Counted from the first letter of the stretch, positions 10,534 through 59,643 are shown. The stretch is 64,000 nucleotides of DNA from an uncultured Chloroflexales bacterium (GCA_937918935.1 CAKZSI010000050.1:2736-66735), one strand, 5' to 3'. Notes: a model not told the origin generated them from the sequence alone. Numbers and translations are program-made.

Positions 10534-10568
10534 GGGAGCGTGGGGAAACCTGGTTTTCCCACGCTCCC
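10534..10568. repeat. REP-like palindrome copy (atpD-atpC spacer)
   Basis: GGGAGCGTGGGGAAACCTGGTTTTCCCACGCTCCC, followed by TGCCGGAGGGG. Confidence 0.85.
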
Positions 10569-10632
10569 TGCCGGAGGGGAGTATCCGGGAGGAGCTCTGC
10601 CTGAGGCGCACCCCGAATTTCCCGTATTCCTC

Positions 10633-12183
<1,551 letters not shown>

Positions 12184-20999: not shown

Positions 21000-22139
21000 T
21001 TACCCCAGCACTTCCACGCAGGTGCGGGGGAGCCAGAGATCGCTGTCGTCCTCGAGGAGCACGTGCACGGCGGGCAACCCGACGCCCGAGGCCAGACCAC
21101 GCGGCGTGGCCGACAGCGCGCGGATGGTTCCCATTCGCCCCAGATGGGCGTCGTCGAGCAGGCGCACCGTGGCCCCGGGGCGCAGGGCGAGACGCGGGAG
21201 TTCGGCCGGCGTGCCACGTGAGAGCGGCACGATCACCCGTGGGCGACGGAATGGTGCGCGGAGACTGGTTCGTCCTTCGATCAGGGCCTCCTGGCGATCC
21301 AGCGAACTGAGCAGGCCGAAGATAGCCTCGTTCATTGGCCGGAAGCCAAAGCCCTCGGTAAGTACGAGGGTCAATTTGAGATCGGCGGTGACGCGCGCGT
21401 CGGGCAGCGACCATGCGGGGAGGGCTTCGGTCCAGTGCTCTGTGCCCGCCCATTCGAGGAACTGGCGCAGTTCGTGTTCTTCGATCCCGCCCACGATCAC
21501 GCCGCGAACCTGCTCGAGCACGGCCCGTCGCAGGGCGGCTGCGCTGATGGCGGCTCCGCCAATGATAATGGCGTAGGCGCTGCGGGTATCGATCTGCTCG
21601 GGTTGCACGCTATCTGACGGGTCTGTCACCAGGAGCCGGAGCACGCCGGTCTGGTCGGCACCGAGGCCAAATACCCCGTAGACCTGCGCAGCGAGGGTTT
21701 CGATGACCAGGCCGCGGTTCGGGAAGATCTCGGTGACTACGCCGCGCACCCCTGCCGAGAGTTCCTGTTCCACCGGATCGGGGACGATGGTCACGTAGCC
21801 GGTCTCGGTGTCAATGTCAGTTATTTCACCGCTCACCGGTGCGACACAACGGCGCCCGAACAGGCTCCCCGAGCGGGCCAGCACCTCGCCCGCGCCGATC
21901 TTAACGCCCTTTTCGCGGCGCATGGCGCGGTACACATCAGCGGGGGGGATGTTCAGCGCCCGCGCCACGTTGATGATGTGCGGCGGAGCGGGCATAAGCG
22001 TAGTCGCCACAACGTCTTCCGGCTCAACCCGCCGCCCCGGGTTGAACAGCACCTCGCCCGGGTAGGGCAACAGGCGTTCGATGCGGGCCAGGCCCGCCGA
22101 AATCAGCGGAGGGACGCCTTCAGGGTTGTAGACGGTCAT
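21000..22139 (-). CDS. Hypothetical protein (possible lipoyl-like barrel-sandwich N-domain and KOW/SH3-like C-terminus)
   Basis: The coding-looking part begins at MTVYNPEG (ATG at 22139). The upstream 203 codons of the tracked ORF are Arg/Gly/His-rich and overlap the divergent gene. Confidence 0.55.
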   Translation of the reverse strand: MTVYNPEGVPPLISAGLARIERLLPYPGEVLFNPGRRVEPEDVVATTLMPAPPHIINVARALNIPPADVYRAMRREKGVKIGAGEVLARSGSLFGRRCVAPVSGEITDIDTETGYVTIVPDPVEQELSAGVRGVVTEIFPNRGLVIETLAAQVYGVFGLGADQTGVLRLLVTDPSDSVQPEQIDTRSAYAIIIGGAAISAAALRRAVLEQVRGVIVGGIEEHELRQFLEWAGTEHWTEALPAWSLPDARVTADLKLTLVLTEGFGFRPMNEAIFGLLSSLDRQEALIEGRTSLRAPFRRPRVIVPLSRGTPAELPRLALRPGATVRLLDDAHLGRMGTIRALSATPRGLASGVGLPAVHVLLEDDSDLWLPRTCVEVLG

Positions 22140-22352
22140 GCTGCCTCGCGGTGGTGCTCCGGTTTGCTTCGTGATGGAGATTATAGCACAGGCGTGGCGC
22201 TCGGACCGGAAACATCCTCTGCGCACAGGGTGGCGCAACGTTCGCCCCCGGCGGCGGGTTCGTGGCTTGCCCCAATGCCTTCGCAGCGGTTCTGGCAACA
22301 CGCAAGCTGTTATAATGGACCGAACGGCGTTCCGCTTCGCCGCAACACGGGT

Positions 22353-23108
22353 ATGAAACAAGTATGTTCCTGGAGGCGCCTGCTCGCCCTGCTGGCCCTG
22401 GCGGCGCTGCTGAATGCCTGCGTGATGCCGGCGGCTGCGCCCGAGACCCCTGAGCAGCCGCGGTTCTCGCGGGCGGTTGATTTGAGTCACGTGGTGCGGG
22501 AAGATGTGCCGTTGCCAGACGGCGAGCCCCGGCCACGCCTGGCGCGCGCGCCGGACGGCGACGTGACGCGGATCGAGCTGGGCAGCAATACCGGTTCGCT
22601 GCTCCGGGTGGTTCCCGGGCCGGGCGCCGAACTCACCAGCGTCGAGCACCTCTCGCCACGCGACCTGGTGCTCCCGGCGGTGGTGATTGACGCCCGCGAT
22701 CGCGCCCAGGACGCGCCGGCCTTCGCCCTCAGCGCCGGTGATCTGCACGCCTGGGAGCGTCGCTATGGCCGTATTCCGCCGGGGACGCTGGTGTTGCTGG
22801 CCACCGGCTGGGACGTGCGCTGGGGCGATCCGCGGGCCTATCTGGGTGTGGATGGCGGGTCTCCCGCCTCCGTGCCTGGTTTTGGGGCCGATGCGGCGGA
22901 CCTGCTGCTCAACCAGCGCGGCGTGGCCGGCCTGGGGGTGGATGCCCCGGGACGGATCTACGTGCCGGCGCGGGGTTTCGCGCTGTTTCTGGAGAACCTG
23001 ACCAGCCTTGAGCAGGCGCCACCCACCGGCGCCACAGTGGTGATCGGCGTCCTGAAGTTGCAGGGGGCCTCAAGCGCGCCGGCGCGGGTGCTGGCGCTGG
23101 TGCCGTAA
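22353..23108 (+). CDS. Cyclase-family (kynurenine-formamidase-like fold) lipoprotein, apparently lacking the metal-binding His motif
   Basis: Lipobox LLNAC after MKQVCSWRRLLALLALAA. DLSH..., VVIDAR, GTLVLLATGW and GLGVDAP follow the family layout. Confidence 0.6.
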   Translation: MKQVCSWRRLLALLALAALLNACVMPAAAPETPEQPRFSRAVDLSHVVREDVPLPDGEPRPRLARAPDGDVTRIELGSNTGSLLRVVPGPGAELTSVEHLSPRDLVLPAVVIDARDRAQDAPAFALSAGDLHAWERRYGRIPPGTLVLLATGWDVRWGDPRAYLGVDGGSPASVPGFGADAADLLLNQRGVAGLGVDAPGRIYVPARGFALFLENLTSLEQAPPTGATVVIGVLKLQGASSAPARVLALVP

Positions 23109-27748: not shown

Positions 27749-28326
27749 CACAGCCAGCGGCAGTCAGGAGGAATGTAGACCCTGCACAGAAGGGTCCGGG
27801 AGCGCGCGCCTCTCCCGGCCCGAAGGAGAGGAACGGTTCAGAACCTGGCCGTGCTGACCATCGTAACCGGCAGGGGGCGACTTGCCGATCGCCCCTGCCG
27901 GTTCGCTCCTTCTGCACAGACCATATGGTCCGTGAACGACGTTTTTCGCTACCGCCCCACCCGCTTCTCAACCTGCTCCCGCCAGGCTATGCATTACGTC
28001 GCATCGGGTTACGACGCTGGCGGCCGGCACTATTCGGCATACCCTGGCTGGCGGTTGATTCGTCTGTGAAGTACGTTTCCTTGTCTTTCCGCCCCCCGGC
28101 CCCCCCGCAGGTGGAGGGTTGTTCGAGCGAGAAGGGATTTTTGGCATTCCAATGCCCCAGATGGCGAACACGACGCGAGGATGTGCCGAAAAACTCTCCA
28201 CCTGAGAACCCGGCCCCCCGTTGGGGGGGAGGAGCCAGACTCCCTCACCTGGCGGGGGAGGGTCGGGGAGGGGGCGAAAAGGCAAAAAAAGTGGAGCTTG
28301 CGTGGCCTGCGCCGCGCGCGTGGACG

Positions 28327-28335
28327 TGCTATGAT
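28327..28335 (+). promoter_or_regulatory. Candidate extended -10 promoter element (TGcTATGAT)
   Basis: TGCTATGAT lies 34 nt upstream of the ATG at 28369. Confidence 0.25.
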
Positions 28336-28368
28336 GTGCGGGTAGCCTATGCAACAGGAACTGGTGTC

Positions 28369-29121
28369 ATGCCACGCATGATCCTGCTGGGAACCGGCAC
28401 CGGTCTACCCGACGTGGACCGGGGACACACGCACATGGTCTGGGATGGACCAGGCGGCCCGCTACTGGTTGACGCGGGAGGCGGCGCCTACGAGCGGCTC
28501 CTGCGCGCCGGGATCGACCCGCAGGCGCTGGCCGGCGTCATCATTACCCACAGCCACTGCGATCACATCAACGGCTTGCCGGGACTGATCTTCAGCATGC
28601 GCCTGGGCGGGCGCGAGGCGCCGCTGCCGATCTACGGGTTGGCGCCGGTGTTACAGTTGCTGGAGCGTACCCTGGAGGTGATGCAGGTCGAGTACCACGT
28701 ACCCGTAGACTGGCGCCCGCTGCAGCCCGGTGATACGCTGGCGCTGGCAGAGGGGTGGCAGGTGCGCACGGCGCCGACAACCCATAGCCGCCCCGGTCTG
28801 GCGTTGCGCTTCGAGGCCCCGGCGAGCGGTCGTGCCCTGGTCTACTCGGCCGACACCGAGCCGTGTGCGGCAGTGCAGGAACTGACCCTGGGGGCTGGTG
28901 TTCTCATCCACGAGGCCACTACGGCGGAGCCGTTTGCCGGGCATACCACGCCGCGACAGGCCGGAGCATTGGCAGCGGGGGCGGGCGTGGCGCGGCTGGT
29001 GCTGGTGCACTACAGCCCGCGCTGGACAATGCCGGAGGATGCGGCCCTGGCCGCGGTGACGGACGCGGGCTTCATCGGCAGCGCCGAAATTGGGCGCGAT
29101 GGGCAGGCAGTTGAGATTTGA
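28369..29121 (+). CDS. MBL-fold metallo-hydrolase (RNase Z / beta-lactamase superfamily)
   Basis: MPRMILLGTGTG...VIITHSHCDHINGLPG (HxHxDH). The upstream part of the tracked ORF (27925-) looks non-coding. Confidence 0.8.
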   Translation: MPRMILLGTGTGLPDVDRGHTHMVWDGPGGPLLVDAGGGAYERLLRAGIDPQALAGVIITHSHCDHINGLPGLIFSMRLGGREAPLPIYGLAPVLQLLERTLEVMQVEYHVPVDWRPLQPGDTLALAEGWQVRTAPTTHSRPGLALRFEAPASGRALVYSADTEPCAAVQELTLGAGVLIHEATTAEPFAGHTTPRQAGALAAGAGVARLVLVHYSPRWTMPEDAALAAVTDAGFIGSAEIGRDGQAVEI

Positions 29122-33784: not shown

Positions 33785-34474
33785 ATGGCCTACCTTGACC
33801 ATCTGCTCGGTCGCGGGGAGCAGATTCTCTATGTCGCCCGCCAGCATCTCTTCGTCCTGATCGCCAATATCGTGACCGAGCTGGCGCTGATCGCCCTGCT
33901 CGTCGCCGCCGGTGTGGCCTCGCATATGGCCTTCGATACCAGCACGATCACCCTCGGTGGCATCACCGCCAGCAACCTGATCCTGCTGATCTGTATCGGT
34001 ATCAGCGTGGTGGTGCTGGTCAGCGGTTTCCTCGACTTTCTGCGCTGGAACAATACGCACCACGTGGTGACCGACCGACGCCTGCTACAGGTGCAGGGGG
34101 TGTTGAGCAAGCAGGTGAATGACGTGGCGCTGGAGAAGATCAACGAGGTCGTGTTGCACCAGAGTTTCACCGGGCGCCTGCTGAACTTTGGCACGGTTAC
34201 AGTATTTACGGCTTCGGGCGATCCGGGCGCCAATATGCTCGATCGGATCGAGGCGCCGCTGGCCTTCCAACAGGCACTGCTCGAGGCCAGGCGCCAGCTT
34301 GAGCAAAACTACCGCTACTTCGACCGCCTTTATCACGCGGCCCCGGCACCGATCGACTCCGCGCCGGTCGAGGTTCGGCGCACGCTGGAAGAACTGGCCG
34401 CGTTGCGCGATCGGGGCATTCTCTCGATTGACGAGTTCGAGGCTCGCAAGCGTGAATTGTTGAGCAAGGGCTAA
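33785..34474 (+). CDS. Membrane bPH (YdbS/YdbT-like) domain protein with a C-terminal SHOCT domain
   Basis: Two TM helices, then HHVVTDRRLLQVQG...VTVFTASG (bacterial PH). The tail is LAALRDRGILSIDEFEARKRELL (SHOCT). Confidence 0.7.
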   Translation: MAYLDHLLGRGEQILYVARQHLFVLIANIVTELALIALLVAAGVASHMAFDTSTITLGGITASNLILLICIGISVVVLVSGFLDFLRWNNTHHVVTDRRLLQVQGVLSKQVNDVALEKINEVVLHQSFTGRLLNFGTVTVFTASGDPGANMLDRIEAPLAFQQALLEARRQLEQNYRYFDRLYHAAPAPIDSAPVEVRRTLEELAALRDRGILSIDEFEARKRELLSKG

Positions 34475-34552
34475 CGATCCACCGCAGGTGGAGAGCGAGG
34501 GGGCGCCGAGTGTGGTGAGGCGGGGGGGTTGAGACGCAGTACTCCACCGGTA

Positions 34553-34583
34553 GAGTATAAGGAAACCTGGTTTTCCCATACTC
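34553..34583. repeat. REP-like palindrome copy
   Basis: GAGTATAAGGAAACCTGGTTTTCCCATACTC, followed by CTGCCGATGCAGGGG. Confidence 0.8.
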
Positions 34584-34604
34584 CTGCCGATGCAGGGGAA
34601 CTCT

Positions 34605-35432
34605 ATGGACGTCTACGATCGCATCGAACAGGCGCGGGCCAGGATTGCGGAGCGGCTGACGCTCACGCCACGGGTCGGGCTGATCCTCGGCTCGGGGTTG
34701 GGCGCACTGGCCGATGCGCTGGAGCAGGCCGTGGTGGTTCCCTACCGCGACATCCCCGGGTTTCAGCAGCCGAAGGTGGCGGGCCACCGGGGTGAACTGG
34801 CGATGGGGCGGTTGGGCGGGCAGCCCGTGGCCGTGCTTCGGGGGCGCTTTCACTTCTACGAAGGCTACACGATGCAGGAGGTGACCTTCCCGGTGCGTGT
34901 GCTGCGTGCCCTGGGATGTGACACGCTGATCGTGACGAATGCCGCGGGCGGGTTGCGCCCCGACTGGCAGGTGGGCGATATGATGCGCATCAGCGACCAG
35001 ATCTTTCTGCCGGGCATGGCCGGCCACCATCCCCTCATCGGTCCGAACGACGAGCGGCTCGGCCCGCGCTTCCCGGCAATGGTCGGGGCTTTCGACGATG
35101 AACTGGCGGCACTGGCCCGCGTGGTAGCCGCGGAGCAGGGAACGCCGCTGCGTGAAGGGGTATACTGCATGGTCGCGGGGCCGAGTTTCGAGAGCGCGGC
35201 CGAGTTGCGTCTCCTGCGCGCTCTCGGCGCCGACGCGGTGGGGATGTCCACCGCGCCTGAGGTGATTGTGGCCCGTCACGGTGGCATGCGCGTCCTCGGC
35301 CTCTCGCTGATTACCAACCTGGCCCTGCCCGATGGCCCGCCGGCTAACCACGAGGAGGTGCTCGCCGCCGGTGAGCAGGCGCGACCCCGCTTCGCCGCGC
35401 TGATCCAGGGAGTGCTGGCGCGAATGACTTGA
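34605..35432 (+). CDS. punA: Purine nucleoside phosphorylase (PNP/MTAP family I)
   Basis: GLILGSGLG, GHRGELAMGRLGGQPVAVLRGRFHFYEGY, TNAAGGL, and GMSTAPEVIVARH. The ATG at 34605 has an AGGGGA SD. An alternative start lies at 34590. Confidence 0.85.
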   Translation: MDVYDRIEQARARIAERLTLTPRVGLILGSGLGALADALEQAVVVPYRDIPGFQQPKVAGHRGELAMGRLGGQPVAVLRGRFHFYEGYTMQEVTFPVRVLRALGCDTLIVTNAAGGLRPDWQVGDMMRISDQIFLPGMAGHHPLIGPNDERLGPRFPAMVGAFDDELAALARVVAAEQGTPLREGVYCMVAGPSFESAAELRLLRALGADAVGMSTAPEVIVARHGGMRVLGLSLITNLALPDGPPANHEEVLAAGEQARPRFAALIQGVLARMT

Positions 35433-35513
35433 GGTTGGGTGAGGGTGATAGCATCGCTCCACACCTCCATACCTCCACACCTCCACAGAGCTGCCAGGCA
35501 GGGAGATAACCCT

Positions 35514-38393
35514 ATGCGCCCTCTGACCCCCCTTGAACGCATCGAAGCGATGGATGCAGCGGTGCGCGAAAAGCTGGCGATATACTGGATCACCAGCGTT
35601 GAAGAGTTCTACGCCACCGTTCGTTCGCGCAACCAGCAGTATGGCACGGGCGTGCAGGCCCTGGCGGTGGCGCTGGAGCTTCCCGAGGAGCGGGTGCGAA
35701 CGCTGGCCGAGGCGGCCCTGCCGTTGCTGCCAGAAGGTGTCTCTTTCAGTGTGCCGGTCGAACTGGAGGTCGGCGCCGGACTGGTGATTGACGCCTACGA
35801 GGATGTCGAGGTCACGGCGTTCGCCGTGCCCACGGCATTGCCCGATCGGGTCGAACCGCCAGCGCACCTGCCGCCGCCCGGCAATCAGGGGGTGCGCAAT
35901 TCCTGCGTAGCCTTCACCCTGGCCGCACTCTTCCAGGCCCGCAGCGGCGATCCGACCGATCTCTCCGAACAGTTCCTCTACTGGGCCTGCAAGGAGCGCG
36001 ATGGCATACGCGGCGACGTGGGCACCGATCCGCTCGTGGGTGTGCGGGTGTTGCAGGACCTGGGCATCTGCACCGAGGCGACCTGGCCCTACCGTCCCGC
36101 GCCGAGTGACCACACCCGCCCGGGTCACGAGCGTCCGCCCGCACAGGCGTTTGATGAGGCCAGGCTGCGCCGGGTGACAGCATTTCGGAAACTGCCAGCG
36201 AAGGGAGTGCTGCAGATCAAGGAGGCGCTGGCGCAGGGGTGCCCGGTGCTGATTGGCCTGTATATCTGGGAGCACTGGAACGGCTCGTGGCAGGGGCGCA
36301 ACCTGGGGCGCGTGCGCTTTCCGTTGCCTGGCGAGGCGCGGCGAGGCGGCCATGCCATGGCCGTGCTGGGCTACCGTGACGATGTGGATGCGCCTGGGGG
36401 CGGGTACTTCATCGTGCGCAACTCCTGGGGCGTTGACTGGGGTGTTGAGAACTCCGATGGGCCGGGTTACGCCCACGTGCCTTACCGCCTGGTCGCCGAG
36501 AGTGGTCTGGCGGCGATTGCCATTGAGGCCGTCGAACACCCGCGCGCCGTCCCCCGCCCGGCAACCGGCACGCTGGCGCTGGTGGGTGAATCTGGCGCCG
36601 AGGCGTTGTACCGTGAGGCGGTGGCGTTGCGCGCGGACCTCCAGGCGCTTGCGGCGCGCTTCGAGGCCCTGGTTGCGCGTCTGGGGGTGCTGGCCGGGGC
36701 ACGGGGCGGGGCCGAGGCGGCGGCCCGCGGGGTCGTCGCACCCGAGGCGCCGGCCGCGCCGGCAATACTGCCCGCAGCGGTGACGGAAGGCCTCGCCGCT
36801 GGCCCGCTGCTGTTCCTGCGCGGTGACGGCCCCGGCGCGGGCGACGAACTCTACCCCAACGGTCTTTCGCCTGAGGGCGCGCCGTTGCTGCGCATTGACG
36901 CCGCCTCGGCCAGCGAACTGGCCCGCAGCGCCCTCGGCGCCGAGCCGCCCGAGTTGCAGGGCGTCTACAAGGCGAAAAAGGAGGTTGCGGAGACAACCCA
37001 CCTCGGCACGACCCGCGACATTGATCCGCTCGATCTGGCCCAGGCTCGCTGGGCGGTGGTGATCAACGCCACCGAGAGCGCCGAGTTGATCAAGGCAATC
37101 TGGCCGCTGATCGCTCACCGGATGACCCGGATGGGCCTCAGCGCGCCGGCGGTGACCTTCGTGGCTGAAGAGAATGCCGGGGCCTGGGTGAACCGGCACA
37201 CCGACAATGGCAGCAAGAACCTGCGCGAGCACTGGGGCCAGATCCCGCCAGTGCTGACCTACCGCCCCAATGAGCGGGCCGGGCGCTGGCTGGCCCGCCA
37301 CGGGGTGAGCCAGGGTCCAGTCGATCCGCGCCGTGGCGTGCCCTACTACCTGCTGCTGCTCGGTCTGCCTGGCCCGCTCCACGCCAACGATACACGCTTC
37401 ATTCCCTTCACGTTCCAGTACGAACTGGATCTCTTCTGGGCCACCGGGCGGCTCTGCTTCACCGGCGCTGACGGCGATCACCGTCTGGCCGACTACACAA
37501 CCTACGCCGAACGTCTGGCTGGCTTCGAGCAGCGGCCCGACCGGGCCAGCCAGGTGCGCAACGAGATAATCTACTACGCGACCCATCACGATATGGACGT
37601 CGCAACGCGGCGCAGCGCCGAGGAGTTAGTGCGCCCGCTGATCCGCTGGACCGGAGACCCCGCCAATGTGCCGCACAGGGAGGGCTTCGTGGCGCGCCCG
37701 TTCGTGGCGGGCGAAGCCAGCCGGGCGGTGCTGGAGCGGATCGTGCGCGGCGAGGGTGATGGCAAGGCGCCGGCGCTGCTGTTCGCAGCCTGTCACGGCA
37801 TGGGCCTGCCACTAAACGATGCGCGGCTCGTGCTGCACCAGGGCGCCCTGGTGACGCAGGATTGGAACGGTGCGGGCAATGTGCAACGCGAGCACTGGTT
37901 CGCCGGGGAGGACCTGGACGACCAGACCCATCTGGAGGGGACGATGGCGCTGCTCTTTGCCTGTTACGGCGCGGGCTGCCCCGACCGCGACGAGTTCATC
38001 TTCGACGAGACGCGGACGCGCCCCCAGGTGGCCCCCTTCCCGCTGGTTGGCCAGTTGCCGCAACGCCTGCTCCTCAGCGGCGTCCAGGCAGTGATCGGCC
38101 ATGTCGAGCGGGCCTGGACCTACTCGTTCAGCGGAACCGATGGCGCACGCTCGCAAACCCAGGCCTTCGAGGACGTGATCGCCCGGCTGCTGCTGGGCGA
38201 GCCGGTGGGCAACGCCACCGACGACTTCAACATCGTGCAGGGAGCGCGGGCCATGGCGCTCACCGACGAACTGGAAAATATCAAGTTCGGCAAGATCGTG
38301 GACCCGCTGGAACTGGCCCAGCTCTGGGTGGCCCGCAACGACGCCCGCAACTACGCCCTGCTGGGCGACCCGGCGGCGCGATTACCGCGGTGA
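35514..38393 (+). CDS. Large cytoplasmic protein with an N-terminal papain-like (C1) and a C-terminal clan-CD (C25/caspase-like) cysteine peptidase domain
   Basis: NQGVRNSCVAFTLAALF, GGHAMAVLGYRD and FIVRNSWGVDWG (C1 Cys/His/Asn-Trp blocks). PALLFAACHGMG and TMALLFACYGAGC (His/Cys each after a hydrophobic strand). C-terminal NYALLGDPAARL. The ATG at 35514 has a GGGAGA SD. An alternative GTG lies at 35439. Confidence 0.7.
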   Translation: MRPLTPLERIEAMDAAVREKLAIYWITSVEEFYATVRSRNQQYGTGVQALAVALELPEERVRTLAEAALPLLPEGVSFSVPVELEVGAGLVIDAYEDVEVTAFAVPTALPDRVEPPAHLPPPGNQGVRNSCVAFTLAALFQARSGDPTDLSEQFLYWACKERDGIRGDVGTDPLVGVRVLQDLGICTEATWPYRPAPSDHTRPGHERPPAQAFDEARLRRVTAFRKLPAKGVLQIKEALAQGCPVLIGLYIWEHWNGSWQGRNLGRVRFPLPGEARRGGHAMAVLGYRDDVDAPGGGYFIVRNSWGVDWGVENSDGPGYAHVPYRLVAESGLAAIAIEAVEHPRAVPRPATGTLALVGESGAEALYREAVALRADLQALAARFEALVARLGVLAGARGGAEAAARGVVAPEAPAAPAILPAAVTEGLAAGPLLFLRGDGPGAGDELYPNGLSPEGAPLLRIDAASASELARSALGAEPPELQGVYKAKKEVAETTHLGTTRDIDPLDLAQARWAVVINATESAELIKAIWPLIAHRMTRMGLSAPAVTFVAEENAGAWVNRHTDNGSKNLREHWGQIPPVLTYRPNERAGRWLARHGVSQGPVDPRRGVPYYLLLLGLPGPLHANDTRFIPFTFQYELDLFWATGRLCFTGADGDHRLADYTTYAERLAGFEQRPDRASQVRNEIIYYATHHDMDVATRRSAEELVRPLIRWTGDPANVPHREGFVARPFVAGEASRAVLERIVRGEGDGKAPALLFAACHGMGLPLNDARLVLHQGALVTQDWNGAGNVQREHWFAGEDLDDQTHLEGTMALLFACYGAGCPDRDEFIFDETRTRPQVAPFPLVGQLPQRLLLSGVQAVIGHVERAWTYSFSGTDGARSQTQAFEDVIARLLLGEPVGNATDDFNIVQGARAMALTDELENIKFGKIVDPLELAQLWVARNDARNYALLGDPAARLPR

Positions 38394-46673: not shown

Positions 46674-49600
46674 TTACGGCGCCAGAAGGTTCCTGCGTAT
46701 CTTCTGATAGATCGCCACCGTTTCGGGCAGCGGCTCAACGCCGAGTTCCTGGTGCAGCGCGGCGACGCAGCGGTTGTAGAGCCGCAGCGCCGTGCTGCGT
46801 TCACCGAGGACGCTGTAGGCCCGCATCAGCAGTTGGTAGGCCTCCTCCTGGGCATGGTCATACTCCAACACGCGCCAGGCCAGACCGATGGCTTCGTGCG
46901 GGTTGCCGTCTTCGAGCAGCAGATTGCCCAGGCGCAGCGACGCCTCGGTGAAGAGCAGCTCCAGGCGTTCCCGCTCCACCACTGACCAGTCTTCGTAGAG
47001 ACAATCTGGCAGGAACGGTCCGCCGTAGAGGCTGATCGCCTGGCGAAAGTGGGCAATGGCCTCGGCGCGTTGTCCCCGTTGCAGGGCGTTCCGTCCCTGC
47101 TCCACCGCCTTGGAAAACTCTGCGGCGTCGTAGCCGTGGTCGCTTTCGACATTGAAGCCGTAGGTGTCGCCCTGTTGCAGAATGTAGTACATCGGCGCGC
47201 CCTCGGGCCGGTTGGGTTCAATCGCTTTAGTCAACCGGCTGATGGTAACGCGGAGGTTATTGGCCGCGGCTTCGTTGTCGAGGCCGGGCCAGAGCATGTC
47301 CATGATCCGGTCGCGGGGTAACATGCGCCCGCGTTCGACCAGCAGCAGTTGCAACAACTGGCGCGCCTTGATACTGCGCCAGTCGCGGTCACGGATCTCG
47401 ACGTCGCCGCGCCAGACGCCGAAGGCCCCCAGGGTGCGCACGTTGAGGCGATACGCGGGGCGATACACCAGGCGTTCCAGGGCGCTCTCGGCGGCGCCGC
47501 GCACATCGGGATGGCGGTCCTTAAGCATCGTTCGGAGGGTGGCGTAGGCCTGCGCGGCGCCCAGGTCGCCCAGGAGCCCGGCGATGCGTGCGCGGATTGC
47601 CGGAGAGGTATGACTGGAAAGCATCTGCAACAGCAGTGCCGGCGCGGACCGAGGGATCTGGCAGCGCAACACCTCGCCGACCGCCACGGGTGCCAGGTCA
47701 TGTTCGATGGCGCTGGCGACGGCCTGCTCAACCACGGCCTGCGGCAATCCGGGCAAAAAGCCGAAGCGGTGGCGCTCACACAGGTTCCAGCCGGCCCGCA
47801 GAGCCTGCAATGAGGTGTCGGAGTGGCCCAGGCGTTGTTCGAGAGCCGCCCGATAGATCTGGACCGAGGCCAGGAACAGGCCATCGCCACGGGCCAGCAT
47901 CTCGCCAGCAAGTTCGGCGGCCAGATTGGCGGCCCGTTCGGTTTCGCCGCCCTCACCGAGCACCACCAGCAGGTAGAGTTGGAGCCAGAGATCGTGGGTG
48001 CTCTGGGCAGGCGGCGCAAGGTCGCCTGGCGTCTGGACCCGGTTTGTCGCCGTAGCCACGGCGGGATCGGCGCCAACGGCGCGCGAGCGCCGCATCAGGT
48101 CGAGGGCCGCGGCGGTCGCAACGGCATCCTGCCCGCCACGGCGAGCCAGGTAGGCCTCAATCACCTGGGCGCGGGTGAGGAGGGACGCCGAACCGCTGGC
48201 ATTCGCGATGCTCCGCGCGCGTGAGAGGTACGTCGTCGCTTCTTCCGTTTCGCCCTGTTCGACCAGCAGGAGGGCCAGGAAGGCGGCGCTCACGCCGATG
48301 ACGCTCTGCTGCTCATAGACGCTCAGGCGGCGATACGCATCGAGGGCCACGAACACCGCCTCGCTGACCTGGCCCTGCTGGTACAGCGCCAGGGCCTTGA
48401 GCAACAGCAGATTCTGATGCAAGCGGTCGTCGCGTTCCACCTGGGGCATCTCCAGCGCCTGACCGATGGCGGTGAGCGCCGCTTCGGGATAGCCCTGTTG
48501 CGTGTGGATCGAACTGACGATCATGGCCAGCAACCACTGCCAGAAGACGCTGCGGGGATGGTGCGTGGCGTGGGCGGCGACGCGCAGGGCGGCGGCGTAG
48601 CGGCCACGGCTGTAGAGCAATGCGGCGGTCGAGGCCAGGGCGGCGCCCCTGGCCCACGTGTCACGCACGCGATTGGCGGCGTGCACGGCGCGCACGCAGA
48701 CATTGGCGAAGTCAGCGGGGCGTCCCTCCCAGAAGATCAGCGCAGCCACGTCGCTCAGGGCACGCAACTCACGCTGATAATTACCTTCGCGGCGGTACAG
48801 TTCGGCGGCGCGGCTGATCGCCTGCAGCGCCTGATCGGGATTTGAGGCGGCCATGCTCCAGCCCCACATGTGCAACAACTCTGCGTCGCGCTCGCGGCGC
48901 TCAACGGGCAGGCTCTCCAGCCAGGCGCGAATACTGTCGCGCTGCGGGCTTTCGATCAGTGGCCAGGCCCGGCGGCGCAGGGCTCCGGCTATGGCCTCAG
49001 CATCACCGGCGGCGCTGTAGTGGGCCATGGCCGCTTCGAGCCGGCCCCGTCGCTCGAAGGCCGCGCCGTAGCGCGTGTGCAGTTCCACCAGCGCCTGTGC
49101 GTCAAGGGTGTGGAGGGCGCGCTCGCGCAACAGCCGGCTCCACAGGGGGTGGAACCGGTAACTCGGTACACTGCTTTCTCCCGTATCAACCAGCGAGATC
49201 GGCAGACCTAGTTGCACACAGCGGTTGATGAGCGCCTCTGCTTCGGGGCGCCCCAGCGCTTCGGCGATCAGAGGCGCGTCGAACTGATCGGTCAGCGCCG
49301 CCTGGGAGAGAAACTCCAGCAGATCCTGCGGCAGGTTCGCCAGCACCTCCGAGGCCAGATAGTCGAACAGGCTGCGCTCACTGCTGTCGAGGGTCTCCAG
49401 GTAGGCGCGGCGTTGCTCGGGGGCGAGGCGCGCCAGGGCCCGGGCGGCAAGTTGCACGCTGAGCACCCAGCCCTCAGTGCGCTGGAGCAGCAGATCAAGT
49501 TCCTCGGCGGGGAGGCGCACCCCCGCGCGCGCGAGCAGTTCGGCCGCCTCCTCGCGGGTCAGCGACAGATCGCCCTGTTCGACCTCGACCAGCGCGCCCT

Positions 49601-50189
49601 CGGCGCGCATGCGCGGAAGGGGCGCAATGTCAATCATGCGCCGCGAGGCCAGAATGACGTGCAGCGTAGGTGGTGCGGCCCGCAGGAGATAGCCGATCAG
49701 CGCCATGGTGATCGGCCCGTCGCTGATCAGGTGCACGTCGTCGATGATCAAGAAGGTTGGCATGGTCAGGGCCGTCTGCAGTTCGCTGAGCAGCGCGCCG
49801 GCGACCACCGGCCAGTCGCGTTCGAGATCGGCGGCCGAGTGGATCACGCGCCACGACTCTTCACCAACCTCAGGCAAATGGCGTTGGAAGGCGCGCACCA
49901 GGTAGGCCAGCAAAAGCGAAGGGGCCTGATCCTCGGCATCGAGGCTGAGCCAGATCACGTGCGCGCCGGTGCGCTGCAACTCGTCGGCCCATTGGGTCAG
50001 CAATGTGGTTTTGCCATACCCCGCCGGAGCTACCACCAGCGTCACGGGCCGTAGACGCACTTCTGCCAGTAGCGCCTGAAGATCAGGCCGTAGCAGGGTT
50101 TCGCTGCGCGGCACCGGTGGCGCCAGTTTCAGCGGCAGCAATGCCGGCCCCGGTTGTGATGTGGATCGAACGGTGGCTACCTGGCTCAT
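46674..50189 (-). CDS. Giant STAND regulator: MalT-like AAA ATPase, TPR-like helical repeats, HEAT-like repeats, and a C-terminal SARP module (OmpR-type wHTH plus BTAD)
   Basis: Walker A APAGYGKTT and Walker B FLIIDDVH. HEAT-like LLGDLGAAQAY...KDRHPDVRGAAESALERL. wHTH LNVRTLGAFGVWRGD...RQLLQLLLVERGRMLPRDRIMDMLWP. BTAD ...LYGGPFLPDCLYEDWSVVERERL...AYQLLMRAYSVLGERSTALRLYNRCVAALHQELGVEP. Confidence 0.8.
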   Translation of the reverse strand: MSQVATVRSTSQPGPALLPLKLAPPVPRSETLLRPDLQALLAEVRLRPVTLVVAPAGYGKTTLLTQWADELQRTGAHVIWLSLDAEDQAPSLLLAYLVRAFQRHLPEVGEESWRVIHSAADLERDWPVVAGALLSELQTALTMPTFLIIDDVHLISDGPITMALIGYLLRAAPPTLHVILASRRMIDIAPLPRMRAEGALVEVEQGDLSLTREEAAELLARAGVRLPAEELDLLLQRTEGWVLSVQLAARALARLAPEQRRAYLETLDSSERSLFDYLASEVLANLPQDLLEFLSQAALTDQFDAPLIAEALGRPEAEALINRCVQLGLPISLVDTGESSVPSYRFHPLWSRLLRERALHTLDAQALVELHTRYGAAFERRGRLEAAMAHYSAAGDAEAIAGALRRRAWPLIESPQRDSIRAWLESLPVERRERDAELLHMWGWSMAASNPDQALQAISRAAELYRREGNYQRELRALSDVAALIFWEGRPADFANVCVRAVHAANRVRDTWARGAALASTAALLYSRGRYAAALRVAAHATHHPRSVFWQWLLAMIVSSIHTQQGYPEAALTAIGQALEMPQVERDDRLHQNLLLLKALALYQQGQVSEAVFVALDAYRRLSVYEQQSVIGVSAAFLALLLVEQGETEEATTYLSRARSIANASGSASLLTRAQVIEAYLARRGGQDAVATAAALDLMRRSRAVGADPAVATATNRVQTPGDLAPPAQSTHDLWLQLYLLVVLGEGGETERAANLAAELAGEMLARGDGLFLASVQIYRAALEQRLGHSDTSLQALRAGWNLCERHRFGFLPGLPQAVVEQAVASAIEHDLAPVAVGEVLRCQIPRSAPALLLQMLSSHTSPAIRARIAGLLGDLGAAQAYATLRTMLKDRHPDVRGAAESALERLVYRPAYRLNVRTLGAFGVWRGDVEIRDRDWRSIKARQLLQLLLVERGRMLPRDRIMDMLWPGLDNEAAANNLRVTISRLTKAIEPNRPEGAPMYYILQQGDTYGFNVESDHGYDAAEFSKAVEQGRNALQRGQRAEAIAHFRQAISLYGGPFLPDCLYEDWSVVERERLELLFTEASLRLGNLLLEDGNPHEAIGLAWRVLEYDHAQEEAYQLLMRAYSVLGERSTALRLYNRCVAALHQELGVEPLPETVAIYQKIRRNLLAP

Positions 50190-50218
50190 ACACTTCGCTC
50201 CACGGATCAGCCACTACG

Positions 50219-50368
50219 ACGAGGCTTCCTCTCGACGGGCGCCGGGGGCCACAGGCCCCCGCAGGATCCTGCCTTCCGCTGCGGCGCGGTGTTATCCCGC
50301 TGCAGCGGAAGGGACATGTCGGAGGAGGCTTCGCCCCTTCAAGCCTCCTCGACCAGAAGAAGCCTCGT
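50219..50368. other. Highly structured spacer (closing stem plus three internal hairpins) between the Ser/Thr kinase stop and the STAND regulator start
   Basis: ACGAGGCTTC (50219-28) pairs with GAAGCCTCGT (50359-68). Internal hairpins: GGGGGCC-ACA-GGCCCCC (50244-60), CCTTCCGCTGC/GCAGCGGAAGG (50272-82/50302-12), and GAGGAGGCTT/AAGCCTCCTC (50322-31/50341-50). Confidence 0.4.
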
Positions 50369-50370
50369 TC

Positions 50371-52320
50371 CTATCCTGATTTACTATCGTCGTAGCGCTC
50401 GAACCTTCCACTATTGTAAAGCACAAATATACTTGCGCTTCCAACGGATCGGTAAATCGGCGTGTAAATCATAGCGCCCTGCTCAAAGAATTGAATAACG
50501 CCCGGCATTTCACCGTCTAACACGATCTCCGGGCTTGTCCAGGCCCCCAGGGCTTCGCGGACACCGGGCCGGTAGAAATAGACGCGCCCGAAGCCACGCA
50601 CGGGTTGGTTCGGATCGGGGCCGGGCGTTGGCGCAGGCCCCAGGTCGGCCACCGCCGCAGGTGAGAGCGCCTGGTACGCGCCTTGCTCAAGCCCTTCAAA
50701 CACAAAGATGTAATCGCGCCAGCGGGTGCGATTGGTCAAATCCCAGTACAACATCGTCCCGCCCTCGAAGAATTGCACCGATCCCTTTCCGGGGCTTTCC
50801 GCGACTACAGGGCATCCCAGGCCGACGCGGACGTTGACGTTTGCCCTGAACAGCCGCCCGAAACCGCCGGCCAGCAATTCATCGGGGCAACCGGCTACTT
50901 CGGTGGCCGTGGGGGCCGGGGAGGGGCTGACCGTGGGCGTCTCGGTGGGGCCGGGGGTTGGAGAGGGGCTGGGCGTGGCTGTGGGCGCCTCGGTGGGGCC
51001 GGGGGTTGGAGAGGGGCTGGACGTGGCCGTGGGCGCCTCGGTGGGTGTGACCTCCGGTGTAGCTGTGGGCGCGGGGCTGGCCGTCGGCGTCGGGGTCGCG
51101 CTCACCGTCGCCGTGGGCTCAACGACCGTGGGCAGGGTTGCCGTGGGCGGCTCATTGGTGGGAGCGGGCGTCTCGGTGGGGGTCGCGCTGGGAAGCGGGG
51201 GGACGGTGGTAGAAGGTGGCGGCGGGGGAGGCGTCACACCTCCCCCGGAGCCGTGTCCTGCCACGATCCAGCCCAGCGTCAGCGCCAGCCCGCCCAGTGC
51301 CAGCGCCGCAGCCACCACTGCGAGCCACGGGACGGAGCGCATACTGCGCCCCAGTGGCGCCCCCGGTCCTGGCGGCGCCGTGGTCGTGGCGCCCGGCGCC
51401 GAAGAAGCCAGGAACGGCGTCTGGCCCACAGGCGCAGCGCCGGCCAGCGCCAGGGTGGGGGTGGGGCCGGGCAGAGTCGCCTCGCTGGCGCCCTGGGCCA
51501 CCAGCCGCAGATCACGCACAAAGGCCCCGGCGCTCTGGTAACGATCGTTGGGGTCACGTGCGGTTGCTCGGGCAAGGACCGCATCGAGACCGGGGGGCAG
51601 GGCCGGATTGAGCTGCGAAGGCGGGGTCAGTTGCCCGTAGAGGTGGCCGAGGAGCACGTCCTGGGCGTTCCCCTCGAACGCCCGGCGACCGGTCAGCGCG
51701 CGGTAGACGAGCATGCCCAGAGCGTACACGTCGCTCGGCGGGCCGACCGGGCCTCCGGCGATCTGTTCGGGGGCCATGTAGTCGGGCGTGCCGATCAGGG
51801 CGCCCGTTGTTGTCAGCCCGGGTGCAGCGAGTTGCTTGGCGATCCCGAAATCGGTCAACAGCACTCCTGGCCCCTCGGCGGCATCGTTGAGAAAGATATT
51901 GCCCGGCTTGACGTCCCGATGGATCACCCCTCGCGCATGGGCATAATCGAGCGCCTCCGCCACCGGCCCCAATACGTCCAGCAGTGCATTCAGGCTCATT
52001 GTGCCGCTTTCCTGGAGCCGGTCCTGCAGGGTCCGGCCGGTTAGCAACTGCATGGCGATGAAGACCATGCCCTCTTGTTCACCCACGTCGTAGACTGCTA
52101 CGATGTGCGGATGGGCCAGCGAGGCGGCCGTGACGGCCTCGCGTTTGAAACGCTCCACCACGGCGGGGTCATCGCTATAGTGCGGATAGAGGATCTTCAG
52201 CGCCACGTCACGCTGCAGCACGGTGTCGGCAGCGCGATAGACCGCGGCCATTCCGCCCCGGCCGAGCAACTCCTTGATATAATAGCGACCGAGACGCTGA
52301 TGGATGAGGGAACGTACCAT
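50371..52320 (-). CDS. Transmembrane Ser/Thr protein kinase with a Pro/Thr-rich stalk and extracellular LGFP-like repeats
   Basis: Hanks motifs GRGGMAAVY, VALKIL, HRDVKPGNIF, DFGIA, and GTPDYMAPE. One TM (WLAVVAALALGGLALTLGWIV). The C-terminus carries two G..QFFE.G.M.Y repeats. Confidence 0.9.
   Translation of the reverse strand: MVRSLIHQRLGRYYIKELLGRGGMAAVYRAADTVLQRDVALKILYPHYSDDPAVVERFKREAVTAASLAHPHIVAVYDVGEQEGMVFIAMQLLTGRTLQDRLQESGTMSLNALLDVLGPVAEALDYAHARGVIHRDVKPGNIFLNDAAEGPGVLLTDFGIAKQLAAPGLTTTGALIGTPDYMAPEQIAGGPVGPPSDVYALGMLVYRALTGRRAFEGNAQDVLLGHLYGQLTPPSQLNPALPPGLDAVLARATARDPNDRYQSAGAFVRDLRLVAQGASEATLPGPTPTLALAGAAPVGQTPFLASSAPGATTTAPPGPGAPLGRSMRSVPWLAVVAAALALGGLALTLGWIVAGHGSGGGVTPPPPPPSTTVPPLPSATPTETPAPTNEPPTATLPTVVEPTATVSATPTPTASPAPTATPEVTPTEAPTATSSPSPTPGPTEAPTATPSPSPTPGPTETPTVSPSPAPTATEVAGCPDELLAGGFGRLFRANVNVRVGLGCPVVAESPGKGSVQFFEGGTMLYWDLTNRTRWRDYIFVFEGLEQGAYQALSPAAVADLGPAPTPGPDPNQPVRGFGRVYFYRPGVREALGAWTSPEIVLDGEMPGVIQFFEQGAMIYTPIYRSVGSASIFVLYNSGRFERYDDSKSG
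50941..51046. repeat. 48-bp in-frame tandem repeat inside the kinase stalk (16-aa unit TEAPTATxSPSPTPGP)
   Basis: CTCGGTGGGGCCGGGGGTTGGAGAGGGGCTGG restarts at 50941 and 50989, with a diverged third start at 51037. Confidence 0.8.
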
Positions 52321-57921: not shown

Positions 57922-58233
57922 AGAGATCACGCAATGATACTGCTGGTAAGCCTGGGAGCGCGGGTCTCCGGCTCGCAGACGGGAGGAGTGCCCGCACTCC
58001 CGGCCACGACCACGCGAGAGTTCGCCAGCAGTATAATGCAACGTCTGCCTCCGGCAGCAGGATCTGGGACGGCTACCCCGCCAAAACCAACCAGAAACCA
58101 TGGGGCTGGAGCAAGCCCCAACGCTGTCAGATGTCGCAACACTCTTAGACGTAGCTTCGCTGTAGGGAGGAAGCAACACCGTGGCGCTGCCAGGTGGAGC
58201 TTCGATACTCCAGCGACTTGCAAAGGTAACGTG

Positions 58234-59643
58234 ATGCGCCTGCGTCTCCGATGGATGCTGATCCTGGCTGCCCTTGCGCTGATGCCTGTCTCGGTCCGCG
58301 TAACAACCGGCACTCGGTCGTCACTCCGGATCTACCTGCCCATTACGGGTATGCCGGCCCAACCATCACTCCTCGGTTTTCAGAGTGCTCCAGACTACCT
58401 ATCGCGTCCAGAGATACGAGCGCGGGCCGCTGATCTTGGTGCGCGATGGGTGCGACTCGATGGTTTCCTCTGGCACGAGGTTCAGGCGCAACCGGGTGGC
58501 GCCTACAACTGGCAGGCCCTCGAACGGGTGGACAGCGCGCTTGCGAGCGCGCGTGCACTTGGCCTCAGGCCCGTAGGTATTATCCGTGGCGCGCCAGCGT
58601 GGGCGGGGGTGGTTCCCTCGAACTGTGCCGCCATTCGTGACGAGTATTTCGGTGAATTTGCAGCCTTTCTGGAGACGCTTGCATGGCGCTATCGCGATAA
58701 GGTGGACTACTGGGAACTCGGGAACGAGCCGGACGTTGACCCCGGCCTTGTGCCGAGCGACTCGCCACTTGGATGTATGGGAGACGTGAATGATCCTTAC
58801 TATGGAGGCGAGCGTTATGGCCGAATGCTTCAGATCGCCGCCCCGGCCTTACGGCGCGGCAATCCGCAGGCAACGATCATCTTCGGTGGTCTCCTCTTAG
58901 CCGCAAGTTCTACGAGCGATCCCCGTATGGGAAGACCGGAGCGTTTCTTCGAAGGAGCGTTGCGGGCCGGAGGTGAAGCGTATGTTGATATTCTGGCCTA
59001 CCATACGTATCCATCGTACAGCGGCCAGCCGTTGCTTGATCACGACATCGATCAGCCCAGTTCCTGGCAGCCTCTTGGTGGCTGGACAGCAGGGAAAGCA
59101 GCCTTCTTGCAAGAGGTGATGTCGCGTTACGGGGTACAGAAGCCTCTGTGGCTGAATGAAACCAGCCTGATCTGTTCTTCGAATTCATTGTACTGTGCAG
59201 CGCCAGATGGGGCGTTTTTTGAGGCCCAGGCCCAGCATCTCGTCCGAATGGTTGCCCGCGCCGCTGCGGCGGGGGTCAGCCAGGTCACCTGGTACACGCT
59301 GGAAGGCCCGGGCTGGCTCTGGTCCAGTCTGCTCGACGAAAGGCAAGAGCCGCGGCCTGCGTATGTCGCCTTCCAGAACATGGCGCGCATGGTTGAACCG
59401 TTCAGCGAGGTCCGCCGTGTGGAGTATGGAGTGGGAATAGAAGCCTATCGTTTTGTGCGCGGCTCGAAGGTCGTTGATGTGCTCTGGTCGCAGGGAGGCG
59501 AACCGCGGGTCGTCAGAATTCCGTTTAGCCGCTACATTGGGGCAAAGCGCCTTGATGGGGTTAGCATAGCCGGTCGGATCGTTCATACCTCGGTGCAATT
59601 GCAGGTGGATTTTGCGCCCATATTCATCGAGCGTCGCCCGTAA
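58234..59643 (+). CDS. Secreted clan GH-A (TIM-barrel, GH5/GH39-like) glycoside hydrolase
   Basis: Signal-like MRLRLRWMLILAALALMPVSV. Acid/base YWELGNEPD and nucleophile region LWLNETS. ATG at 58234 inside the longer tracked ORF. Confidence 0.65.
   Translation: MRLRLRWMLILAALALMPVSVRVTTGTRSSLRIYLPITGMPAQPSLLGFQSAPDYLSRPEIRARAADLGARWVRLDGFLWHEVQAQPGGAYNWQALERVDSALASARALGLRPVGIIRGAPAWAGVVPSNCAAIRDEYFGEFAAFLETLAWRYRDKVDYWELGNEPDVDPGLVPSDSPLGCMGDVNDPYYGGERYGRMLQIAAPALRRGNPQATIIFGGLLLAASSTSDPRMGRPERFFEGALRAGGEAYVDILAYHTYPSYSGQPLLDHDIDQPSSWQPLGGWTAGKAAFLQEVMSRYGVQKPLWLNETSLICSSNSLYCAAPDGAFFEAQAQHLVRMVARAAAAGVSQVTWYTLEGPGWLWSSLLDERQEPRPAYVAFQNMARMVEPFSEVRRVEYGVGIEAYRFVRGSKVVDVLWSQGGEPRVVRIPFSRYIGAKRLDGVSIAGRIVHTSVQLQVDFAPIFIERRP

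Follow-up and report, generated by a model that had tools for sequence, protein, structure and literature searches.

Gene and domain layout

The window analyzed here, a 64,000-nucleotide stretch of DNA from an uncultured Chloroflexales bacterium (GCA_937918935.1 CAKZSI010000050.1:2736-66735; 65% GC), carries on its plus strand a gene whose predicted product combines two unrelated cysteine-peptidase folds in one chain: a papain-family (C1) domain toward the N terminus and a clan CD (caspase-fold) domain in the C-terminal half. This architecture had been proposed in an earlier description made from the sequence without database searches (hereafter, the sequence-only reading). The open reading frame (ORF) at 35439-38393(+), 984 codons counted from a GTG at 35439, matches the extent described there exactly. 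Its translation contains the quoted papain-family blocks (NQGVRNSCVAF, GGHAMAVLGY and VRNSWGVDWG) as well as ALRADLQALAARFEALVARLG, PALLFAACHGMG and TMALLFACYGAGC, and its C-terminal end is NYALLGDPAARL.

We regard the ORF as a genuine gene rather than a chance reading frame, because a public gene call (P0121, 959 amino acids (aa)) is 100% identical to the window protein and because ~75 clusters of orthologs exist (40-91% identity, 931-1049 aa). The orthologs come from Chloroflexus, Oscillochloris, Ca. Chloroploca, Ca. Viridilinea, Roseiflexaceae and unclassified Chloroflexales, and their clusters are either nameless in databases or automatically named 'C1 family peptidase', a name that ignores half of the protein. 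The start codon is the part of the earlier gene model that did not hold. Translation almost certainly begins at ATG 35514 (residue 26 of the ORF) rather than at GTG 35439, yielding a 959-aa product, since all ortholog alignments open at the methionine of this ATG, the public call is 959 aa long and a Shine-Dalgarno-like GGGAG lies 9 nt upstream. Residues are numbered from ATG 35514 unless marked as ORF numbering, which counts from GTG 35439 and is 25 higher. The features below derive from profile matches, from structures predicted with AlphaFold2 (AF2) and from Foldseek searches.

35514..38393, plus strand: whole gene, 959 aa plus stop; the longest ORF runs from GTG 35439
35514..35726, plus strand: N-terminal module (N-module) of four helices, aa 1-71 (full-length AF2 model)
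35727..35885, plus strand: extended segment, aa 72-124, directly ahead of the C1 core (full-length AF2 model)
35886..36536, plus strand: C1 peptidase (papain family, xylellain type), aa 125-341 (PF00112, 3OIS, Foldseek)
35886-35888, plus strand: C1 Gln125 (ORF Q150), oxyanion residue
35904-35906, plus strand: C1 Cys131 (ORF C156), catalytic
36351-36353, plus strand: C1 His280 (ORF H305), catalytic
36420-36422, plus strand: C1 Asn303 (ORF N328), catalytic
36537..36800, plus strand: interdomain linker, aa 342-429 (full-length AF2 model)
36594..36698, plus strand: coiled-coil helix, aa 361-395 (GAEALYREAVALRADLQALAARFEALVARLGVLAG), one unbroken helix in the model
36801..38390, plus strand: clan CD (caspase-fold) domain, 'C25-like', aa 430-959, ~530 aa (AF2, Foldseek)
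37794-37796, plus strand: clan CD His761 (ORF H786), followed by Gly
37962-37964, plus strand: clan CD Cys817 (ORF C842), preceded by Ala
34206-37589, minus strand: antisense ORF of 1127 codons over most of the protease gene, rejected as a gene and treated as an artefact given the 65% GC content and the strongly supported sense-strand gene

A papain-family peptidase near the N terminus

By profile, order of catalytic residues and predicted fold, the N-terminal protease belongs to family C1 and is a predicted peptidase, in agreement with the sequence-only reading, which had assigned the N-terminal third to this family. The window protein matched Peptidase_C1 (PF00112) over ORF residues 148-336 (E = 3.8e-10; 40.6 bits compared to a cut-off of 20.7), and phmmer against PDB sequences retrieved xylellain (3OIS) with E = 1.8e-21. 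The quoted blocks fall at catalytic positions, with NSC, GGHA and RNSWG of the window protein pairing with GSC, GGHA and RNSWG of 3OIS. In a full-length AF2 model (predicted local distance difference test (pLDDT) 86.1, predicted template modeling score (pTM) 0.75), 3OIS was also the top Foldseek match (E = 1e-17, TM-score 0.79), followed by Legionella Lpg2622 and pro-cathepsins. More than 250 PDB hits of the model reached E <= 1e-3, and all 50 of those listed are papain-family enzymes. Gln150, Cys156, His305, Asn328 and Trp330 (ORF numbering) were unchanged in 50 of 50 orthologs.

Ahead of the C1 core, the model places four confidently predicted helices (15-23, 29-37, 46-54 and 58-71; pLDDT >90) that include a conserved motif, LAxYWITSxEEF, and have no Pfam match at E <= 10. 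The following segment (72-124) contains almost no helix or strand, with pLDDT of ~80-90 until about residue 100, 61 for residues 101-110 and <50 at 102-104. This segment is probably a candidate pro-region, the counterpart of the N-terminal pro-region of xylellain, because the structural alignment to 3OIS spans the whole of xylellain (289 alignment columns over a 267-residue chain) and the sequence alignment starts no earlier than chain residue 52. In xylellain, the pro-region reportedly regulates activity.

The N-module and a xylellain-type C1 domain also occur together in four proteins of ~750-800 aa (P0197, P0198, P0204 and P0216) from Verrucomicrobiota, Hydrogenedentes, Planctomycetota and others, where they are joined to a ~400-aa region of other origin. 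This region has no Pfam match and carries a transmembrane (TM) helix at its C terminus, making these proteins a second, membrane-anchored architecture. A test of whether this region, in these proteins of the PVC (Planctomycetes-Verrucomicrobia-Chlamydiae) group, is a diverged clan CD domain was negative (hhalign E = 0.32).

A clan CD domain at the C terminus

The C-terminal domain is predicted to be a peptidase with a clan CD fold and the His-then-Cys arrangement of that clan. Its AF2 model, built on 69 diverse homologs, reached a pLDDT of 92.7 and a pTM of 0.93 and comprises an N-terminal alpha/beta subdomain (~250 aa before the dyad) and a six-stranded catalytic subdomain (strands at 226-234, 271-276, 297-304, 356-360, 404-408 and 492-496 in domain numbering). 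H306-G307 directly follow the third strand and A361-C362 the fourth, as had been described from the sequence for the His-Gly and Ala-Cys pairs. Both residues of the dyad are conserved, with His in 68, Gly in 69 and Cys in 67 of the 69 family members; among the fusion orthologs, the clan CD His is present in 50 of 50 and the Cys in 48 of 50, the other two having Ser.

The best 23 Foldseek matches of this domain are all clan CD proteins (probability 0.82-1.0), consisting of Csx29/TPR-CHAT, separases (yeast, human and worm) and DdvA, a CHAT protein and anti-sigma factor. The best match is Csx29/TPR-CHAT of Craspase (7xsr_C; probability 1.0, E = 4.6e-5), and caspases-7, -9, -3 and -1 matched more weakly (0.4-0.7). 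Together with the papain-type fold matched by 3OIS, this recovers both of the folds that the sequence-only reading had expected from structure prediction and a Foldseek search.

The same reading had associated the end of the protein, NYALLGDPAARLPR, with gingipain/C25-type peptidases. Part of this stands: relatives share the NY.LLGDPA motif, and 48 of the 69 matched Peptidase_C25 (PF01364) at E <= 0.01 (best, 2e-13), mostly over profile positions ~287-374, which cover the terminal NDARNY.LLGDPA motif. Several relatives exceed the gathering score, with P0091 reaching 40.2 bits against a cut-off of 23 and P0265, P0257 and P0279 matching over positions 110-374, and PF01364 is the only Pfam family reached by members of this family. 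The window protein itself had no match to PF01364 even at E <= 10, and no gingipain was found among the best 50 Foldseek matches of the domain. The C25 label is a transitive and weakly supported one, and we file the domain as C25-like by sequence and CHAT/separase-like by structure, not as a gingipain.

Other family profiles gave little more. The window protein did not match the CHAT profile (PF12770), for which P0312 is the sole relative with a weak match (E = 0.007), and the C14 profile (PF00656) matched neither the window protein nor any of the 69 relatives. For the C-terminal half, no relevant match was found in Pfam (E <= 10), NCBIfam or PADLOC, by phmmer or with the 69-sequence profile against PDB sequences; NCBIfam had no match for the window protein as a whole. 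This half was identified only through structure prediction with Foldseek and through transitive Pfam matches.

The linker and its coiled coil

In the full-length model, the linker between the two proteases consists of a disordered stretch (349-359), a long helix (361-395) and a disordered Ala/Pro-rich stretch (396-428), with pLDDT <50 in both disordered parts. The linker is weakly conserved among orthologs and varies in length. The helix keeps hydrophobic residues at 362/365/369/372/(376/379)/383/386/390/393 across 50 orthologs, and the sole indel among them is exactly 7 residues long, so that the heptad register is kept. Because of this strict 3-4 spacing and the register-preserving indel, we consider the helix a genuine coiled coil, in line with the coiled-coil-like linker proposed earlier. 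On the evidence of the model, linker 342-429 would also be the most likely site of an activating cleavage.

A large family often found beside a second protease

Homologs of the C-terminal domain are numerous, with >800 found by word-indexed search and 4,493 at E <= 1e-3 (2,472 at E <= 1e-30) in a profile search of 1.84 billion representatives, each of the 4,493 being a cluster at 50% identity. A scan of one genome per species located at least 580 family loci in Chloroflexota, Cyanobacteria, Acidobacteriota, Proteobacteria, Planctomycetota, Verrucomicrobiota, Gemmatimonadota, Desulfobacterota and others.

The sequence-only reading had suggested surveying homologs for conserved neighbors. We called ORFs in 86 loci with ±10-kb flanks and clustered the neighbors, and found a conserved gene order around the fusion (described below) and CHAT partners around its relatives. 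CHAT proteins were by far the commonest neighbor family, with the Pfam architectures CHAT-SIR2_2, CHAT-nSTAND1 and CHAT-nSTAND1-WD40, distributed as follows.

Non-Chloroflexales loci (n = 46): CHAT in the locus in 32, within 3 kb in 24, within 150 bp in 14
Chloroflexales loci without C1 (n = 11): CHAT in the locus in 4, within 3 kb in 4
C1-fused loci (n = 22): CHAT in the locus in 0, within 3 kb in 0

This proximity is not a flank-wide background, because 24 of the 32 CHAT neighbors lie within the nearest 3 kb of the ±10-kb flank. The distribution of C1 fusion is complementary to that of CHAT adjacency.

Coupling to other proteases also occurs within single proteins. Among the best 150 representatives, 106 are standalone, 14 are tandem repeats, 6 are fused to CHAT, 5 are fused to C1 and at least 2 are combined with Trypsin_2 and NucA. 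Examples are P0259 (CHAT-C25like), P0333 (CHAT-nSTAND1-C25like) and P0265 and P0257 (C25like-Trypsin_2-Endonuclease_NS). Where relatives carry STAND, SIR2 or WD40 sensors, these sit on the CHAT protein, and the C25-like partner is usually a bare protease of ~480 aa. Taken together, neighborhoods and fusions show that outside the Chloroflexales the family is usually, and recurrently, coupled to a second protease.

In a neighbor-joining tree, the Chloroflexales copies form a single clade nested inside the CHAT-associated family. The basal Chloroflexales members still adjoin CHAT, and C1-less paralogs of ~600 aa (coiled-coil helix plus clan CD domain) are interleaved with the fusions.

Standalone C25-like genes have further recurrent neighbors without a Pfam match (representatives L082:8331-9698, L043:11446-12237 and L055:12645-12980). 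A protein of ~455 aa with a GHSxG serine-hydrolase-like motif occurs in 15 non-Chloroflexales loci, one of ~263 aa in 11 loci and one of ~111 aa in 6 loci. The hydrolase-like ~455-aa neighbor may correspond to the protease-activated alpha/beta-hydrolase effectors of Evans et al.

Split, paralogous and degenerate forms

At one locus of an uncultured Oscillochloris sp. (L032:1179-4162; CAIRDL010000547.1), the halves of the fusion occur as two genes. The first (1179-2363) encodes the N-module, the C1 domain and an amphipathic helix at its end; the second (2360-4162) encodes a helix and the clan CD domain, its start overlapping the stop of the first gene in an ATGA. We favor a genuine two-gene form over an assembly frameshift because the overlap is clean and each product carries a separate helix. 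Read as a Rosetta-stone pair, this locus speaks for joint action of the two proteases and for an association via their helices.

The C1-less paralogs start with the same helix as residues 361-395 of the fusion. Oscillochloris sp. ZM17-4 has three of them in tandem directly downstream of the fusion (L001:13034-19258; JAIEWN010000009.1), encoding a coiled-coil helix and a clan CD domain (631, 660 and 686 aa in public gene calls), and at another locus (L021) one such paralog follows the fusion. The shared helix may recruit them, either as substrates in trans or as partners.

Two paralogs are degenerate. P0053 (862 aa) no longer retains the Cys, His and Asn of the C1 domain, its clan CD Cys is replaced by Ala, and an extra insert of ~130 aa separates the domains. 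In P0196 (613 aa), the C1 Cys and His are replaced by Val and Thr, and the N-terminal region is a different one. It is possible that both are pseudo-protease regulators or decoys.

Localization and genomic neighborhood

A Kyte-Doolittle scan of 50 orthologs revealed no signal peptide, no hydrophobic N-terminal segment and no TM stretch, with hydrophobic maxima confined to the cores of folded domains. The same had been noted for the window protein, and the fusion is most likely cytoplasmic.

In the window, the fusion follows genes for RecO, a bPH_2/SHOCT membrane protein and a PNP_UDP_1 phosphorylase, and downstream of it lie convergent TRAP-transporter genes and PEPCK. The RecO-bPH-PNP-fusion order recurs in Oscillochloris sp. 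ZM17-4 and Chloroflexus, and 18 and 15 Chloroflexales loci have a bPH and a PNP gene, respectively, at <=1.5 kb. The tree of the clan CD domain sorts the orthologs by genus. On the basis of this conserved synteny and the grouping by genus, we conclude that the fusion is a vertically inherited core gene and not a mobile defense island. Within the 64-kb window, tblastn and hidden Markov model scans found no paralog, CHAT gene or STAND partner, and PADLOC returned no match for the fusion gene.

Other neighbors were recorded as well. An AAA_16/nSTAND5-like NTPase of 1170 aa (46674-50189) with HEAT repeats, Trans_reg_C and BTAD lies ~8 kb from the fusion and adjoins a Ser/Thr protein kinase of 648 aa, the pair spanning 46674-52320(-). 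We rejected it as a STAND partner: it is a SARP/AfsR-type transcription factor without conserved linkage. An MBL-fold hydrolase upstream of recO, present in the window (27925-29121, plus strand) and in Oscillochloris (L001:6389-7162), is a Lactamase_B_2 protein with a weak Anti-Pycsar Apyc1-like match; it belongs to the same conserved neighborhood and probably has a housekeeping role. In Chloroflexus (L002/L003:13765-16186), MoxR/CoxD-like AAA+ and VWA_CoxE genes lie ~1 kb downstream of the fusion, followed by a cluster of FHA, VWA, Ser-Thr kinase and PP2C genes. Eleven Chloroflexales loci have this neighborhood, the inspected ones all belonging to Chloroflexus; neither the window nor Oscillochloris L001 has it, and it is probably local synteny. 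Three long ORFs of the window (9739-12621(+), 21000-22748(-) and 57934-59643(+); 960, 582 and 569 aa) had no Pfam match at E <= 1e-5, and scanning the window for Rfam families and tRNAs gave no hits.

Proposed mechanism and alternatives

Judged from their conservation, purifying selection acts on both active sites throughout the order Chloroflexales. By analogy with the SAVED-CHAT→PCaspase cascade, we propose that the fusion is a latent two-tier protease with coupled catalytic centers, a reading that we find plausible and hold in about even balance. One chain would then probably hold a two-step cascade that other bacteria split over two neighboring genes, with C1 having taken over the role of CHAT in the Chloroflexales. 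An initiator protease would cut the chain at or close to the flexible linker, or at the pro-like segment, and the cut would license the other protease as an executioner. The coiled coil might drive oligomerization and thereby proximity-induced activation, and could also recruit the C1-less paralogs that share the helix. The freed clan CD domain would then attack cellular targets, either with broad specificity or at defined sites, and cells might stop growing, a single cell of the filament might die or a protein might be processed in a regulated way.

The sequence-only reading had raised a proteolytic cascade or regulated-death effector as an idea, to which the comparative data now lend real support, because the clan CD relatives are habitually paired with a second protease in STAND, SIR2 and NucA conflict-system loci. 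With no sensor NTPase attached and a conserved gene order of housekeeping type around it, the fusion resembles a conflict-system module that was domesticated and hard-wired in the course of descent, and not a mobile defense island.

Several observations weigh against the coupled two-tier protease. The CHAT association is guilt by association, measured on relatives and not on the window protein. An hhalign comparison of the family profile with a profile of 46 CHAT neighbors put H306 and C362 in register with the His and the catalytic Cys of CHAT, at a non-significant E of 0.14. The fused gene has no sensor domain, no defense-island context and no PADLOC match, and as a single-copy, vertically inherited gene it fits a housekeeping function as well as a role in death or defense.

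The alternative that survives best is a housekeeping protease of dual specificity, whose domains act independently and in parallel on substrates in general protein turnover or in the maturation of specific proteins; the fusion would merely co-localize them, with no zymogen cascade, death or defense. An order-wide, single-copy and vertical gene in synteny with recO, bPH/SHOCT and a purine/methylthioadenosine (MTA) nucleoside phosphorylase speaks for this explanation, as does a window with no sensor NTPase, CHAT or defense genes near the fusion and no PADLOC match. However, the clan CD family otherwise occurs in conflict-type loci with CHAT, STAND, SIR2 and NucA and time and again has a second protease as its partner, and the translationally coupled halves of the split Oscillochloris locus, with a helix on each, argue for a functional partnership. 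Moreover, unregulated C1 and clan CD activity in the cytoplasm would presumably be hazardous, so that latency would be expected. We consider this explanation possible, if on the unlikely side.

The cascade could also run in the reverse direction, with the clan CD domain as a specific, separase- or CHAT-like initiator or sensor, activated for example by binding of a ligand or partner to its N-terminal subdomain, that releases the C1 domain as a broad executioner. The nearest solved structures, Csx29/TPR-CHAT and separase, are highly specific and tightly regulated, the C1 domain is akin to the xylellain/procathepsin zymogens and has a pro-like segment on its N-terminal side, and papain-family enzymes are typically broad in specificity. 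This order is nonetheless improbable in our view, as the sensors of relatives sit on CHAT and leave the C25-like protein bare, in the executioner position of PCaspase.

A secreted or surface-exposed, gingipain-like protease for nutrient acquisition or virulence is very improbable: relatives match Peptidase_C25, the window protein has the C-terminal motif of that family and xylellain-type C1 enzymes are found in plant pathogens, but none of the 50 orthologs has a signal peptide or TM segment, Pfam finds Peptidase_C1 alone in the window protein and hence no sorting or Ig-like domain, gingipains are not among the best 50 structural matches and the relatives associate with cytoplasmic STAND, SIR2 and NucA proteins. 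No more credit is due to the idea that one domain is a catalytically dead pseudo-protease that only scaffolds or binds substrate; separase and CHAT proteins do contain pseudo-protease subdomains and degenerate paralogs exist (P0053 and P0196), but the window protein keeps every catalytic residue and its orthologs retain them almost without exception (C1 Gln, Cys, His, Asn and Trp in 50/50; clan CD His in 50/50 and Cys in 48/50).

Returning to the coupled two-tier protease, its boldest form would be a hard-wired 'cathepsin-like → caspase-like' death cascade that lacks a sensor, is contained in one polypeptide and is fixed in the core genome of every filamentous member of the Chloroflexales, where it serves the programmed death or sacrifice of individual cells in the filament. 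We regard this version as doubtful. If true, it might underlie filament fragmentation, altruistic lysis triggered by stress or phage, or developmental remodeling; it would be a prokaryotic counterpart of cathepsin/caspase cross-activation in eukaryotes and would offer an experimental entry to a clan CD family of >4,000 clusters that partners CHAT-STAND immune sensors.

Protease cascades in bacterial immunity have been recognized only recently, as CHAT→PCaspase and as protease-licensed metallo-beta-lactamase (MBL), hydrolase, Pepco and EACC1 effectors. What the present finding adds is an overlooked, large clan CD family, whose 4,493 clusters are missed by annotation or labeled 'hypothetical' or 'C25', and its fusion to C1; the concept is a variant of the known two-protease cascade. 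In one lineage, the partner protease appears to have been exchanged for a papain-type enzyme and joined in cis, the product then becoming a vertical core gene. The 959-aa protein offers a compact and tractable model for how two unrelated cysteine proteases may license each other, and for asking whether domestication can give a conflict-system module a cell-autonomous task in a bacterium that is multicellular.

Comparison with known systems

No characterized member of this architecture was known to the sequence-only reading, and the literature agrees: in searches for C25-like proteins in defense and for clan CD with papain-like proteases in Chloroflexi, neither the family nor the C1 fusion was described. 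Term searches of the Kaur, Steens and Evans papers likewise gave no description of either, and those of the Kaur and Evans papers no mention of C25 or gingipain; in both Kaur papers papain appeared only among effector domains of the peptidoglycan-peptidase or transglutaminase-like kind. Multidomain bacterial C1 proteins are explicitly left unanalyzed in a review of how the papain family evolved (PMC10380794).

The closest relatives of the N-terminal protease are short bacterial C1A peptidases, namely xylellain of Xylella fastidiosa (3OIS) and Legionella Lpg2622. Unlike xylellain, a single-domain protein of ~290 aa, the C1 domain here lies between a four-helix module and a coiled coil with a second protease.

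Gingipains carry type IX secretion system (T9SS) sorting and Ig-like domains. The clan CD family shares with gingipains and PF01364 the His-then-Cys order and the terminal ...LLGDPA, whereas the window protein has no signal peptide and no detected sorting or Ig-like domains and is apparently cytoplasmic. With Csx29/TPR-CHAT and separase (C50), the domain shares a clan CD fold placed after an extra alpha/beta subdomain (E from 5e-5 to 1e-3), and those proteins are intracellular and tightly regulated, the window protein being likewise apparently intracellular. It differs from them in having no significant sequence similarity, TM-scores of ~0.3 of the query, no TPR or HEAT scaffolds and an NDARNY.LLGDPA motif that is not in the CHAT or separase profiles.

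Conflict systems of multicellular bacteria that contain nSTAND, EACC1 and NucA-trypsin components were defined by Kaur et al. 2020 (PMC7159879), and protease-licensed effectors have been described as a general defense logic (Evans et al. 2025, bioRxiv 10.1101/2025.11.14.688446). Like these systems, the clan CD relatives occur in CHAT-nSTAND1, CHAT-SIR2 and trypsin-NucA loci and in the same kinds of host (cyanobacteria, Chloroflexota, Acidobacteriota and others), whereas the fused Chloroflexales gene lies outside any such locus. We considered three named CHAT-associated modules as identities for the family and rejected each: EACC1 is a single-TM domain, Pepco is set apart by its description as a beta-barrel pore-former and PCaspase belongs to C14 (PF00656).

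The nearest functional parallel is a type III-B CRISPR/CBASS system of Haliangium ochraceum, in which SAVED-CHAT cleaves and activates PCaspase, a clan CD protease of broad specificity whose subsequent digestion of many proteins leads to abortive infection (Steens et al., bioRxiv 10.1101/2023.06.23.546230). PCaspase is defined by PF00656 and has its dyad, H79/C146, near the N terminus (ibid.); the clan CD domain of the window protein has no C14 match and a subdomain of ~250 aa before the dyad. As in that pair of cysteine proteases, a specific initiator and an executioner acting in series, standalone relatives of the fusion's clan CD domain adjoin CHAT, just as PCaspase does. Unlike in that system, the partner of the clan CD domain here is a C1 protease fused in cis rather than a CHAT protease in trans, and the fusion is a vertically inherited core gene with no SAVED, CRISPR or other sensor. 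A CHAT partner is found only beside standalone relatives and not by the window gene, which may, by analogy, work like a CHAT-partnered two-protease module while being no member of one.

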